From: a phage
DNA: 64,000 nucleotides
Direction: 5' to 3' (one strand)
NCBI GenBank assembly: GCA_014816185.1
Contig: GCA_014816185.1_4095.1
Made by a program: the position numbers and the translations under genes
The notes under the pieces: model-generated
What the model was told of the DNA's origin: nothing
The model's database searches: none
What the model saw: the letters and a program-made list of their open reading frames with translations, nothing else
Part shown: in pieces, positions 57,383 to 59,400 of the stretch
How the letters are laid out: each line of letters opens with the position of its first letter
Numbering within the stretch: the stretch's first letter is position 1

Positions 57383-57504
57383 TTCAACATATAGACAGGG
57401 GAAGCTCCGCAGGGAAAGCATTGGACAGGCTTTAACATATGTTATATATGTTAAAATTCAGCCTGGACAAATGCGATCACTAGGATTCTCCCCAGGCTAA
57501 ACCC

Positions 57505-57785
57505 CGTAATCATATGTAGTCATAAGTAATCATATATAAACATTTAAGTAATCATTTATAATCACAGTAGTGATCAGTATTGAGTACTAGAGTGTAATAG
57601 AGTACAGGAATGTGCACGTTTAATCAAGAACGTAGCAGTACTGCCCCAAAAGTATTCAGTACTGAAGGTGGCGATATCCCACTAAGTAGGCAGAGGAAGT
57701 CTGCCGTACTTTGTAGTTTCCAAGCTCCTTTTCCATTTTGCAAATTACATCAAATGTAATCAAAAGTAATCACGCAATGATTAGT
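57505..57785. repeat. cluster of GTAATCA short repeats with inverted copy
   Basis: GTAATCA recurs at least five times (about 57506, 57526, 57548, 57756, 57766) plus inverted repeat TAATCACGCAATGATTA. Confidence 0.5.
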
Positions 57786-58048
57786 ACTGAATTATTACTT
57801 TCACCTTAATTTCAATTACCCTTTTACCCTTCGGGGTAAAATTCAATTACCCCTTGAGGCTCCAGCAAAAAGTTGGTTAGTACTCCATCCTAAATCTCGA
57901 TCCTAAAAATTTTGGAGTACCTATGAAATAAAAGTTGGATCTTCGAAAGTTGAAATTTACGTTGGGACGTTTATGATTTGTGGGATATAATGATGTTTGT
58001 AGTCGGGTAGTTCTCAAGAATATCAGTACTGAAAGATGAAAGAAAGTT

Positions 58049-58077
58049 ATTGACTTTATGATTCAGTACTGTATAAT
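58049..58077 (+). promoter_or_regulatory. orphan sigma70-like promoter
   Basis: TTGACT - 17 nt ending in CAGTACTG - TATAAT with no ORF of 60 aa or more downstream. Confidence 0.45.
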
Positions 58078-58473
58078 GTTCTACATAGCTTCAAGGGGTG
58101 ATGAGTTGCTGCGAACAATTCATTTACTCTACCTCCTGTCGTGAGACAGTACAGAAAAGATAGTTCCTCCTGTGGTGGTACATCTTTTTGAACCTCATAT
58201 GAAAATCGTAATAACAGTACTGATATTAACAGAATGGTATCAGTACTGATTTTAATCTAAAGCATTATGCCACCAGCTTGTGCTGGTGGATTCCCTCTAA
58301 CAGTATTCAGTACTACATGATAGTCTTCATCCTCCTAGGGTAACATAGTGAGGGCTATGATGGCAGTACTGAATACTCCCTTTCAAAAGATAGATCTATG
58401 GTATAGTACTGACGGATTTTGGGTGTAGTTACCCTGGATGGATTTTGGACGTAGATATGTCTAGCCCTCCAGA

Positions 58474-58600
58474 AGTCTGGAAGTAAAGATGGCTATCCAT
58501 CTAGACGGCTAAACGGCTAGATTTCTGGATGGCTGGATGGCTAGACGTTTGGACGGCTAAACGTCTAGATGGTTACACGTCTGGAAGTATAGACGGCTAA
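58474..58600. repeat. dense array of CTAGACG / GGCTAAACG short direct and inverted repeats
   Basis: GTCTGGAAGTA flanks both ends; internal CTAGACGTTT-N7-AAACGTCTAG inverted repeat; GGATGGCT and GGACGGCTAAACG units. Confidence 0.5.
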
Positions 58601-58779
58601 ATCAAAATTTTATTTTGTTTTTTCCAATAGTTCCCCTACCGCGTGGGGATAGTTTCCCCGCAGTATCTGGAGTTAGATTTTTCTGAATCTGGAATCATTA
58701 TCTTATAAACTGGGGGCAATGTCAACGGCCTGGACGGATATTTTTAAAAATTTTTTCAGTACTGAATTTTGGGCGTAAC

Positions 58780-58840
58780 TATGCACCCGGTGGGCTTGAG
58801 TCTTTCTCGACTTGATGGAACTATTATACAGTACTGGAAA
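58780..58840. repeat. intergenic repeat TGCACCCGGTGGG...CAGTACTGG, copy 1
   Basis: Shares TGCACCCGGTGGG(C/T)TTAG ... TTGATG ... ATTAT.CAGTACTGG with copies near 60928 and 63348. Confidence 0.5.
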
Positions 58841-59223
58841 AATAAAGCAATACCCTGGATGAAAAAAGTTTTAATTAATTTGCTTGCTATCCTGGGCCGG
58901 ACTATGGTACTATATTTCAGTACTGAGAAAGTGCGTTAACCTGCTAGGGTGCGGGAGTGTATCCTTTTTAAATTTTATGAATTTTGGACGGATCTTCCCA
59001 CCCCCTGGGGTATCCGCTTTCTCGCGTCTATGTAGTAATTATACGCTTTTTTAGTACTGAGTCAATAGCTAAAAACAAAATAATTGAAAATAATTTAACG
59101 CGTTTAAACGGCCTGTAACGCCCTGGATTGTTGGGAGTGGTGCAAATGTATAGCTTAGGTGTATTAATGCGTTAGAATGCGATTGAGGCCGTTTTACGGG
59201 GTGTAGTAGTGATTTGGTTGATT

Positions 59224-59310
59224 CAGTACTGAATAATAGTACTCCTATATAGAAAGATAGTTCCCCTGGATGGTTGCAGTACTGAATAATAGTACTCCTA
59301 TATAGAAAGA
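59224..59310. repeat. 34-bp direct repeat, two copies
   Basis: CAGTACTGAATAATAGTACTCCTATATAGAAAGA at 59224-59257 and 59277-59310. Confidence 0.6.
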
Positions 59311-59341
59311 AAACTATTTTAAAAGTATTTGTAGAAAGTAC

Positions 59342-59400
59342 TTGCACCGTACTGATAAAAGCGTATAATGTTTTACATCGAGAGCGGGAACACTTCCCGC
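59342..59400 (+). promoter_or_regulatory. promoter plus 5' leader hairpin cassette
   Basis: TTGCAC - 16 nt - TATAAT then GCGGGAA-CAC-TTCCCGC hairpin. Confidence 0.55.

Follow-up and report, generated by a model that had tools for sequence, protein, structure and literature searches.

Phages with terminally repeated chromosomes provide the closest described counterparts of the locus considered here, a gene-free segment of a jumbo phage genome (57383-59345, in positions of the 64,000-nt stretch of DNA that was analysed as a whole, referred to below as the window). The left end of T7 consists of a terminal repeat of 160 bp, the short-repeat arrays SRL and SRR (CCTAAAG heptamers), and the host promoters A0-A3 ahead of gene 0.3, and host RNA polymerase draws DNA into the cell from this end. 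The siphovirus T5 (122 kb), for which DNA transfer in two steps has been shown, possesses 'Repeat Region 3' or the injection-stop (iss) region, an untranslated, repeat-dense stretch of 1.2 kb located mostly inside the terminal repeat and reaching 270 bp into unique DNA. The shear point of T5 first-step transfer has been placed at ~9618 in a preprint on iss that mentions DnaA boxes, neither Fur nor MetJ being named (Davison, bioRxiv 10.1101/866236). In RaK2-like jumbo phages, direct terminal repeats (DTRs) of 22,456 bp (CBB; PMC5259590), 20,993 bp (fEgEco12; PMC13070987), 20,030 bp (Muenster) and 19,736 bp (fENko-Kae01, below Kae01) have been reported; the available portions of these reports give the length and the ends of the repeat, and describe no leader, modules or met-box array. 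The segment is likely to be the junction at the left edge of such a repeat, comprising a conserved cis-acting leader and an array of boxes like those of a host repressor.

Left end of the terminal repeat

By megablast, 57383-59345 matches 42 phage records at 89-97% identity, all of them jumbo myoviruses of the PBECO4/121Q/phAPEC6 group (genus Asteriusvirus) with genomes of ~310-386 kb, and the known hosts of phages related to the segment are E. coli and Salmonella; on this similarity the source phage is identified as an Asteriusvirus (PBECO4/121Q-type, RaK2-like) jumbo coliphage. In the relative fEgEco12, PhageTerm revealed the DTRs and restriction digests bore them out (PMC13070987), and nt 1-5260 are 100% identical to nt 353741-359000, which displays in a relative the two copies of the repeat of which the window holds one. 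The first nucleotide of fEgEco12 (= its nt 353,741) aligns with 57685 at 97% identity. Five further records, deposited independently (vB_Ec-M-J, BF17, ELP-22, CRJP21 and E9.1), start at the same base, with AGTAGGCAGAGGAAGTCTGCC, bringing to six the deposited relatives that begin at the homologue of 57685, and the record of vB_Ec-M-J annotates 'Direct Terminal Repeats' at 1-21,525. The packaged chromosome of the close relatives is shown by these data to begin at the base equivalent to 57685, with the repeat duplicated at both ends; for the relatives, this terminus is already known. Because their records start there and the end of fEgEco12 was measured, the left physical end and DTR boundary of the present phage can be placed by homology, with high confidence, at 57684/57685. 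The original prediction had named a packaging or genome-terminus region among its candidate roles, and the mapping of the relatives' experimentally determined left end to 57685 bears this out. Positions 57685-59345 would constitute the first 1.66 kb of the DTR, a non-coding leader. The predicted compositional boundary is also found, GC content being 0.38-0.41 downstream versus 0.33-0.36 upstream and GC skew changing sign at ~57 kb (about -0.2 to +0.1); the GC-richer downstream DNA is interpreted as the terminal repeat with its early-type genes.

The context of the cut is shared with other genera. The ends of Kae01, CBB and Muenster were set by PhageTerm or by read depth and pulsed-field gel electrophoresis, and the left boundaries (cut marked by a slash) read TTCAGTACTGAAGGTGGCGATATCCCACTA/AGTAGGCAGAGGAAGTC in Asteriusvirus, TTCAGTACTGATATGCCACTA/AGTCCGTTTATAAAGTC in Muenster, TTCAGTACTTACCCCCTTCCGCTA/TATCTTCTC in Kae01 and TTCAGTACTGTTGACCCCTTCCGCTA/TATCCGTTCCTGAAGTC in CBB. 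All four genera have CC(A/G)CTA directly 5' of the left cut and a TTCAGTACT(G) box 12-20 nt before it; in the source phage the cut follows CCCACTA, ~20 nt past a TTCAGTACTG box. Inside the repeat, GAAGTC occupies +12 to +17 from the end, the same position as in XbC2, CBB and BF. The new left end starts with a hairpin in Asteriusvirus (GGCAG-N7-CTGCC, extendable by AGTA/TACT) and likewise in Kae01 (TATCTTCT-N7-AGAAGATA). At the right boundaries, which lie outside the window, fEgEco12 has GGGTAACCT/TAGCGA, Kae01 CATGCCT/TAGCCA, CBB TAACGCT/TAGCGA and Muenster TTAGGCT/TAGCAC, a cut within (C/G)CT/TAGC in all four genera. With moderate to high confidence, terminase is proposed to cut concatemers at 57685, directed by the CAGTACTG box, CCCACTA and the phased repeats, specific to the genus, that flank the cut on either side; further signals for terminase recognition or processing may be the terminal hairpin and the AGTACTCCA...TGGAGTAC element. 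The locus agrees with the RaK2-like DTRs in the homologous nucleotide at its genome end, in the context of the cut site, and in the presence within the repeat of small genes and of early sigma-70 promoters.

The non-coding leader and its met-box array

The segment had been predicted to lack plus-strand open reading frames (ORFs) of 60 aa or more, and the longest in 57383-59345 are indeed 56, 56, 49 and 44 aa. A minus-strand ORF of 112 aa (59069-59407) and a plus-strand ORF of 56 aa (58769-58939) are interrupted by stops or frameshifts in eight close relatives, and are therefore not genes. Coding sequences (CDSs) are drawn in the segment in the GenBank records of WPEC3, ELP-22 and E9.1, and are missing from those of PBECO4, BF17 and CRJP21 and from the left copy in fEgEco12. 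On these two grounds, disruption in relatives and annotation that is inconsistent between records, a protein-coding explanation was ruled out. The 5-8 'hypothetical protein' CDSs annotated inside the leader in WPEC3 (6203-7737), WPEC5, ELP-22, E9.1, JP4 and the SD-series look spurious, their ORFs not being conserved even among close relatives. The gene-free gap probably extends to 59424, with the first real gene starting at ATG 59425; the PHROG match of this gene begins at residue 18, and PBECO4 annotates a CDS of 363 nt.

Among nine Asteriusvirus genomes, 57685-58935 has mostly 0-3 variable columns per 50, with peaks of 14 at 58085-58134 and 8 at 58485-58534; the downstream genes have 10-33 variable columns per 50 in most 50-bp windows. 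Low-stringency blastn matches short islands of the segment to the extreme starts of records in other genera. The order of modules is the same in six genus-level groups (among them Asteriusvirus, the Kae01/Munch group, Mimasvirus with XbC2, CBB and GAP32, Eneladusvirus with BF, and Alcyoneusvirus with Muenster): the terminus with GAAGTC, an inverted-repeat element, a rightward orphan promoter (P1), CAGTACT boxes with a GC hairpin, an array slot, a leftward promoter, a rightward promoter (P2), a long hairpin, a second leftward promoter and the first early promoter. Since the leader is less variable than the adjacent genes and keeps its module order, it is evidently under selection and not a gene desert. 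Decayed DNA without function, consisting of pseudogene remnants and slippage repeats at a recombination-prone boundary, would fit the absence of a conserved ORF and the inconsistency of several annotated CDSs between records, but the conservation among relatives contradicts it, as does the retention of module order across groups that share only short motifs, and it is considered extremely improbable.

The array slot, bounded on the left by ATTTTGGGTGTA and on the right by TTTTTCCATTAGCTCCCCTTCCGCG...GGCAGAATCG, is filled in the source phage by a tandem array resembling the operators of MetJ. Natural MetJ operators have two to five boxes. The original prediction described a CTAGACG/GGCTAAACG repeat array, and its 8-bp period is real, extending over 58455-58598. 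Read in register from 58487, boxes 1-7 are AGATGGCT, ATCCATCT, AGACGGCT, AAACGGCT, AGATTTCT, GGATGGCT and GGATGGCT, and boxes 8-14, ending at 58598, are AGACGTTT, GGACGGCT, AAACGTCT, AGATGGTT, ACACGTCT, GGAAGTAT and AGACGGCT. The array starts 802 bp inside the repeat boundary; the promoters nearest to it are P1 (~410 bp to the left) and a leftward promoter (~100 bp to the right), and no gene follows. When the half-met-box matrix and acceptance rules of Augustus and Spicer were applied (two or more adjacent 8-bp boxes, each scoring at least one quarter of the consensus score, with a sum of at least the consensus score; PMC3228920), all 14 boxes passed, at 3.8-10.7 bits each (mean 7.57) and with a sum of 105.9 against a threshold of 12.58, and the array was the only predicted MetJ site in the window. 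It resembles the E. coli operators (box consensus AGACGTCT) in its 8-bp unit, its strict tandem register, its degeneracy at matching positions (R-R-A-Y and G-K-Y-T) and its passing of the published per-box and per-site thresholds (PMC3228920); it differs from them in having 14-16 boxes, where the same paper states only 'two or more' per operator, in the predominance of the GGCT half-site, in regulating no met gene and in lying near a phage chromosome end. Of 500 shuffled versions of the segment, one contained a tandem run of four boxes and none a longer run; the per-box threshold is passed by 1.05% of all octamers, and a mean of at least 7.5 bits is expected of a random octamer repeat, in its best register, with p = 0.0075. 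Recent slippage does not account for the array, since 12 of the 14 boxes are distinct sequences.

In fEgEco12, PBECO4, WPEC3, XbC2, CBB, GAP32 and BF, 13-15 boxes occupy the same slot, and arrays of 9-28 boxes occur in jumbo phages of Mimasvirus and Eneladusvirus, in the T5-like phages PR1, Pontus and AhSzq-1, and in the T7-like PGT2. Providencia phage PR1 has nine boxes at 9620-9691, with a consensus of exactly AGACGTCT, in a gene-free stretch directly after two perfect DnaA boxes (TGTGGATAA), 770 bp inside the boundary of its 10,461-bp terminal repeat. The other two T5-like siphoviruses, Vibrio phage Pontus and Aeromonas phage AhSzq-1, have 15 and 28 boxes, respectively. In the T7-like podovirus PGT2, nine boxes occupy nt 38-109 and the array recurs at the opposite (right) end of the contig, and phiKT and KPV811, also T7-like, match the array by blastn. 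Between XbC2 (736-761) and PGT2 (74-99), a jumbo myovirus and a podovirus, 26 array nucleotides are identical (GGCTAGACGTTTAGACGGCTAAATGG), which suggests either horizontal exchange of the array or very tight constraint.

MetJ is confined to Enterobacterales, Pasteurellales, Vibrionales, Aeromonadales and Alteromonadales, and the hosts of the array-bearing phages (Enterobacterales, Vibrio and Aeromonas) fall within the MetJ-bearing orders. A tblastn search with E. coli MetJ (a query validated by 99% matches to bacterial entries) found no homologue in the phage records of the collection. With no phage-encoded MetJ and a host range matching the distribution of MetJ, host MetJ is the obvious candidate binder, and we lean towards the view that it binds the array. 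TrpR was set aside as a candidate binder on half-site geometry, which does not match its consensus. Alternatively, the likeness to met boxes may be coincidental, and the array may be bound by a phage protein (a small terminase subunit or another ribbon-helix-helix protein) or act as a structural packaging element. The systematic deviation of the boxes from the consensus towards the GGCT half-site agrees with such a role, as do the closeness of the arrays (about 1 kb at most) to a physical end or repeat boundary in records with known ends and the report of XbC2 from a host genus outside the MetJ-bearing orders. However, the array occurs alike in jumbo myoviruses, T5-like siphoviruses and T7-like podoviruses, whose terminases are unrelated, so that what links them is the host; the boxes of PR1 have the MetJ consensus itself, the host range fits, and the slot alternatively holds arrays resembling the site of another host repressor. 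A non-MetJ array is for these reasons judged unlikely, though it retains appreciable weight.

Several points weigh against the reading of the locus as a terminal junction with a host-repressor array. The terminus of the source phage is placed by homology to relatives at 93-97% identity. Most of the boxes are AGAYGGCT, and the G that replaces T at their position 6 is disfavoured by the matrix (-1.31 bits). The array overlaps no promoter of a methionine-regulon gene and controls no methionine gene; it is therefore not a conventional operator, and is named a met-box array instead of a met operator. The MetJ matrix also accepts perfect octamer microsatellites, for example (AAACATTT)n, (GGACGGTT)n and (GGATGGCT)n, including in giant-virus bins: in a degenerate five-box scan of IMG/VR, many such microsatellites of unrelated viruses came up together with the known T5-like arrays, exposing this false-positive mode of the matrix without widening the array family. 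Xanthomonas phage XbC2 bears the array, and Xanthomonas lies outside the MetJ-bearing orders; in its leader, XbC2 matches an Erwinia phage at 90.6% identity, so its host label may not be decisive. Finally, the association of the arrays with ends is a weaker argument than it might be, since non-coding DNA concentrates near phage ends in any case.

Between the same flanks, Kae01/Munch and Muenster have GAGAATAATAATGATTATC- and GAGAATGATAATGATTCTC-type repeats in the slot. These match the Fur-box consensus GATAATGATAATCATTATC at 14-17 of 19 positions, and a cluster of such density was attained in 0 of 1000 shuffles. T5 (AY587007, 9468-9640) has AAATGAGAATCATTATCATT-type repeats after its DnaA boxes, where PR1 (NC_041913, 9500-9700) has met boxes; the 'direct repeat C / palindromes E-I' of T5 are Fur-box-like, with 15 of 19 matches, and the shear point at 9618 falls within the Fur-like box at 9615-9633. 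The MAFFT alignment of T5 and PR1 being poor, the equivalence of their slots was read directly from the DnaA boxes on the left and CCCTGCGCTT(T/A)TGTGC on the right. To judge from these comparisons, met boxes and Fur-like boxes exchange within one slot in two lineages. The leader of the source phage (57685-59400) contains neither Fur boxes nor DnaA boxes. No literature was found that links MetJ or met boxes to phage ends or gives the array sequence, an absence that does not prove novelty; what appears new to the literature is the conserved leader and, most of all, the arrays of host-repressor boxes that T5-like and T7-like phages have in common with the source phage.

Other elements of the segment and its surroundings

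The features of the segment are collected in Table 1.

Table 1. Features at the left edge of the terminal repeat, in window coordinates.
Feature	Coordinates	Strand	Remarks
Last 302 bp of the unique genome	57383-57684	+	Left of the terminal repeat
AT-rich palindrome	57431-57455		Unique side
GTAATCA-type repeats, 10-bp phased	57506-57565		Unique side
Two CAGTACTG boxes	57636 and 57657		Unique side
Cut-site motif CCCACTA	57678-57684		Directly 5' of the cut
Left physical end (predicted), first base of the ~21-kb repeat	57685-57710	+	AGTAGGCAGAGGAAGTCTGCCGTACT hairpin from nt 1
Second GTAATCA cluster	57749-57785	+	Two copies 10 bp apart and TGATTAG; 65-100 bp inside the repeat
Inverted-repeat element AGTACTCCA-(ATCCTAAA x2)-TGGAGTAC	57879-57921	+	Terminus-proximal; conserved across genera
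Orphan sigma-70-type promoter P1, TTGACT-N16-TATAAT	58050-58077	+	11/12; CAGTACTG in spacer; directed into the repeat
Two CAGTACTG boxes, 26 bp apart	58215-58248	+	Pairing possible
GC hairpin CCACCAGC-TTGT-GCTGGTGG	58270-58289	+	Same hairpin at Kae01 483-502
Tandem met-box (MetJ operator-like) array	58455-58598		14 contiguous 8-bp boxes (58487-58598); the boxes at 58455 and 58471 keep the same register
Right flank of the array slot, TTTTTTCCAATAGTTCCCCTACCGCG...GCAGTATC	58618-58667		Conserved in an alignment of five groups
Leftward sigma-70-type promoter, TTGACA-N17-GATAAT	58697-58725	-	Reads toward the array
Promoter P2, TTGCTA-N18-TACTAT	58884-58913	+	Weak in Asteriusvirus
Long hairpin element	58939-59026	+	Three helices, 24 pairs; candidate small RNA or structured DNA site
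Leftward promoter, TTGACT-N16-TATAAT	59038-59065	-	-10 in cross-genus block GTCTATGTAGTAATTATAC; antisense to the hairpin element
First repeat-gene promoter, TTGCAC-N16-TATAAT	59342-59424	+	With 5'-UTR (untranslated region) hairpin GCGGGAA-CAC-TTCCCGC and ribosome-binding site; end of the gene-free stretch

The inverted-repeat element near the terminus is 93% identical over 43 nt to nt 86-128 of Kae01 and Munch, and 82% identical to XbC2 nt 54-120. An orphan TTGACT-TATAAT promoter had been predicted; it is present as P1, with a spacer of 16 and not 17, and has equivalents at matching distance from the end at Kae01 331-359, BF 269-297 and Muenster 271-299 (12/12). The counterparts of P2 are TTGACA-N18-TACTAT in XbC2, CBB and BF and TTGACA-N17-TATTAT in Kae01. 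On the minus strand, Kae01 has an equivalent of the promoter at 58697-58725 with identical hexamers (921->893), and the leader of Muenster has 11/12 promoters at 1183->1156 and 1404->1377 as possible counterparts. The promoter at 59038-59065 has a counterpart in Kae01 directly to the right of the homologous hairpin block (1145->1117), and likewise at 1404->1377 in Muenster. The leader thus carries host-type promoters on both strands without an ORF behind them.

The long hairpin element was recognized by RNAalifold in seven sequences from six genus-level groups. Of its cells, 87% are paired, compared with 35-49% in slid-partner controls; ten pairs show compensatory changes, and the covariation score is 0.353 (0.254 in shuffles), no shuffle out of 500 having scored as high. 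Given the small sample and the derivation of the structure from the same alignment, this support is suggestive only. The hairpin loop is TTTTATGAATTTTGGAC in Asteriusvirus and Mimasvirus, and is Fur-box-like (for example GCGAATGAGAATCATTACC) in Kae01 (1040-1060), BF (1034-1052) and Muenster (1306-1324); the presence of a Fur-like box in the loop in three genera hints at a role at the DNA level. A noncoding RNA locus had been among the predicted roles, and the orphan promoters conserved across genera and the compensatory changes of the hairpin speak for it, while Rfam gives it no match. If the segment were primarily such a locus, P1, P2 and the leftward promoters would make regulatory RNAs, including a sense/antisense pair over 58939-59026, which is consistent with the conserved positions of the promoters, the pairing of the hairpin and the excess of G.U pairs (23) over A.C mismatches (11) on the plus strand. 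Against this, neither at the gathering threshold nor with E values of up to 5 was an Rfam family found, the best covariance-model scores of Rfam 15 in the segment (E at least 0.03, 18-20 bits) falling below the 44-100 bits needed; the leader has no conserved terminator, the structure comes from seven sequences and their own alignment, and the Fur-like loops point to DNA. A primarily RNA-producing locus is accordingly ranked as unlikely. Transfer RNA, tmRNA and known RNA families were ruled out in the segment, none being found.

The predicted GTAATCA clusters are real, five copies being grouped within 57506-57772 with 10-bp phasing, but the inverted copy reported with them is imperfect (TGATTAG), and the heptamer is not enriched in the window (22 copies versus 17 expected). 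Origins such as T4 oriF and oriG and the primary origin of T7 are primed by transcripts. By this model the segment might be a replication origin, with the orphan promoters making primer or R-loop transcripts and the GTAATCA repeats serving as iterons, a role compatible with that of a terminus. Promoters on both strands that are conserved across genera, phased GTAATCA units adjoining AT-rich DNA, and a minimum of cumulative GC skew at ~57 kb despite plus-strand ORFs on both flanks all agree with an origin. However, the Asteriusvirus leader has no DnaA boxes, the GTAATCA repeats are absent from other genera while the remaining leader is conserved, the skew may reflect the odd composition of the small paralogous genes upstream, and no initiator gene is adjacent, the neighbouring genes being of unknown function. 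An origin is therefore rated improbable, and a terminal junction with a cis-acting leader is preferred.

The remaining predicted repeats include a 34-bp direct repeat (CAGTACTGAATAATAGTACTCCTATATAGAAAGA), which is exact on the plus strand at 59224-59257 and 59277-59310 (starts 53 bp apart), and the many CAGTACTG palindromes, of which 12 copies are present in the segment. With 60 copies in the window versus 1.0 expected, CAGTACTG is a genome-wide motif and not special to the segment, although its density is 6.1/kb there and falls to 2.2/kb in non-coding DNA elsewhere and to 0.65/kb within coding DNA. The extended form of the palindrome is wwTCAGTACTGAAw, and its core AGTACT occurs 248 times in the window. 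Sites of CAGTACTG (for example 15554, 30219, 52538, 60834 and 63000) are found inside genes in all three frames (7, 7 and 22) and between genes, and several copies lie within the spacers of sigma-70-type promoters, immediately 5' of TATAAT, many early promoters having the form AAAGTACTTGCA. The motif may be an operator for a phage regulator. LexA, TrpR, SlmA and MetR were set aside as candidate binders on half-site geometry, which does not match their consensus sequences, and a literature search on CAGTACTG matched only primer and microRNA papers.

Past 59.4 kb there are small plus-strand genes, each with its own sigma-70-type promoter, and promoters similar to that at 59342-59424 recur every 300-600 bp downstream. 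The pattern of these early genes is (A)AAGTACTTGCA-N16/17-TATAAT, then a short 5'-UTR hairpin (GGGGAA-N3-TTCCCC or GCGGGAA-CAC-TTCCCGC), then a ribosome-binding site; at least eight such promoters occur in 4.6 kb (59342-59424, 59808-59880 and onward to 63800). Upstream of the segment, ~20 back-to-back paralogous ORFs of 59-78 aa, typically about 62 aa (phrog_11711, unknown function), fill 52500-57382 on the plus strand, with a GC skew of -0.1 to -0.26 and an AT skew of +0.2, opposite to the other plus-strand genes of the window. They are preceded on the minus strand (39528-52476) by at least ten tandem paralogues, each of 375-433 aa and resembling RCC1 ('regulator of chromosome condensation'); CBB has a kelch-like gene at the equivalent position, directly before its repeat boundary. 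Comparison of the flanking genes with PHROG and Pfam returned only 'unknown function' and the RCC1-like domain, and the only Rfam/ARAGORN match in the window is a single tRNA-Thr (TGT) gene at 837-910.

Comparison with T5 and T7, and a possible role of the array

The whole segment may be regarded, by analogy, as the mirror-image counterpart of 'Repeat Region 3' of T5. Both straddle the repeat boundary, the segment with 302 bp of unique DNA in its 1.96 kb; both are more conserved than the neighbouring genes, have adjacent genes transcribed away from them, and carry, 0.5-0.8 kb from the boundary on its repeat side, an array of boxes like those of host repressors, which in the T5-like phage PR1 is the same met-box array. 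The segment differs in lacking pairs of DnaA boxes (TTWTNCACA) in 57685-59400, where T5-like phages have about eight; in its orientation, being at the left edge of the repeat where the T5 region is at the right edge; and in its met boxes, where the T5 array is Fur-like. In addition, two-step transfer, shown for T5, is only a possibility for the present phage, and the virus families are unrelated, the present phage being a myovirus of ~350 kb. With the left end of T7 the segment shares a gene-free leader, short repeats beside the terminal repeat and strong inward promoters for host RNA polymerase; the repeat of ~21 kb with the array inside it distinguishes it from T7. Among T7-like phages, PGT2 carries the same met-box array as the source phage.

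If it binds, MetJ with its corepressor S-adenosylmethionine (SAM) would polymerise co-operatively along the array into a nucleoprotein filament of ~110 bp, ~0.8 kb from the DNA end. The purpose of such a filament is a matter of speculation: it might be a protein block or anchor at the boundary of DTR and unique DNA, as suggested for the T5 iss region; it might insulate the convergent promoters P1 and 58725->58697 from each other; or, as the main alternative, it might be a decoy that titrates host MetJ once the phage DNA has been replicated. If the right end is the leading one, first-step DNA would consist of the ~21-kb repeat and the early genes on it; if the left end leads, the inward orphan promoters would resemble the T7 left end, with host RNA polymerase pulling the DNA in. 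Tentatively, tandem operator arrays for polymerising host repressors could be an interchangeable 'protein-filament cassette' that arrests, anchors or ratchets incoming DNA or titrates repressors. Its possible members would be the MetJ boxes of the source phage, PR1, Pontus, AhSzq-1 and PGT2, the Fur-like boxes of T5, Kae01 and Muenster, and the DnaA boxes of T5-like phages, conceivably all placed 0.04-0.8 kb from a chromosome end or repeat boundary in unrelated terminal-repeat phages.

The start point of these 350-kb genomes is now fixed for annotation, most Asteriusvirus records being arbitrarily permuted, with the end lying mid-record, or containing spurious CDSs in the segment; for the building of jumbo-phage vectors, the packaging signals and the end leader need to be preserved. 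In this part of the genome, variation is lowest in non-coding DNA, whose layout is common to six genus-level groups. The recurrence of host-repressor operator arrays near the ends of three unrelated phage lineages points to a common way of using host DNA-binding proteins at the ends of phage chromosomes that has not been described. What stops the first-step transfer of T5 DNA has been a question since the 1960s, and a Fur-like box at the stop point provides a testable idea. If tandem repressor arrays do act as such cassettes, RaK2-like jumbo phages would deliver their ~21-kb repeat as first-step DNA in the manner of T5, or the arrays would titrate host repressors, rewiring methionine/SAM or iron metabolism.

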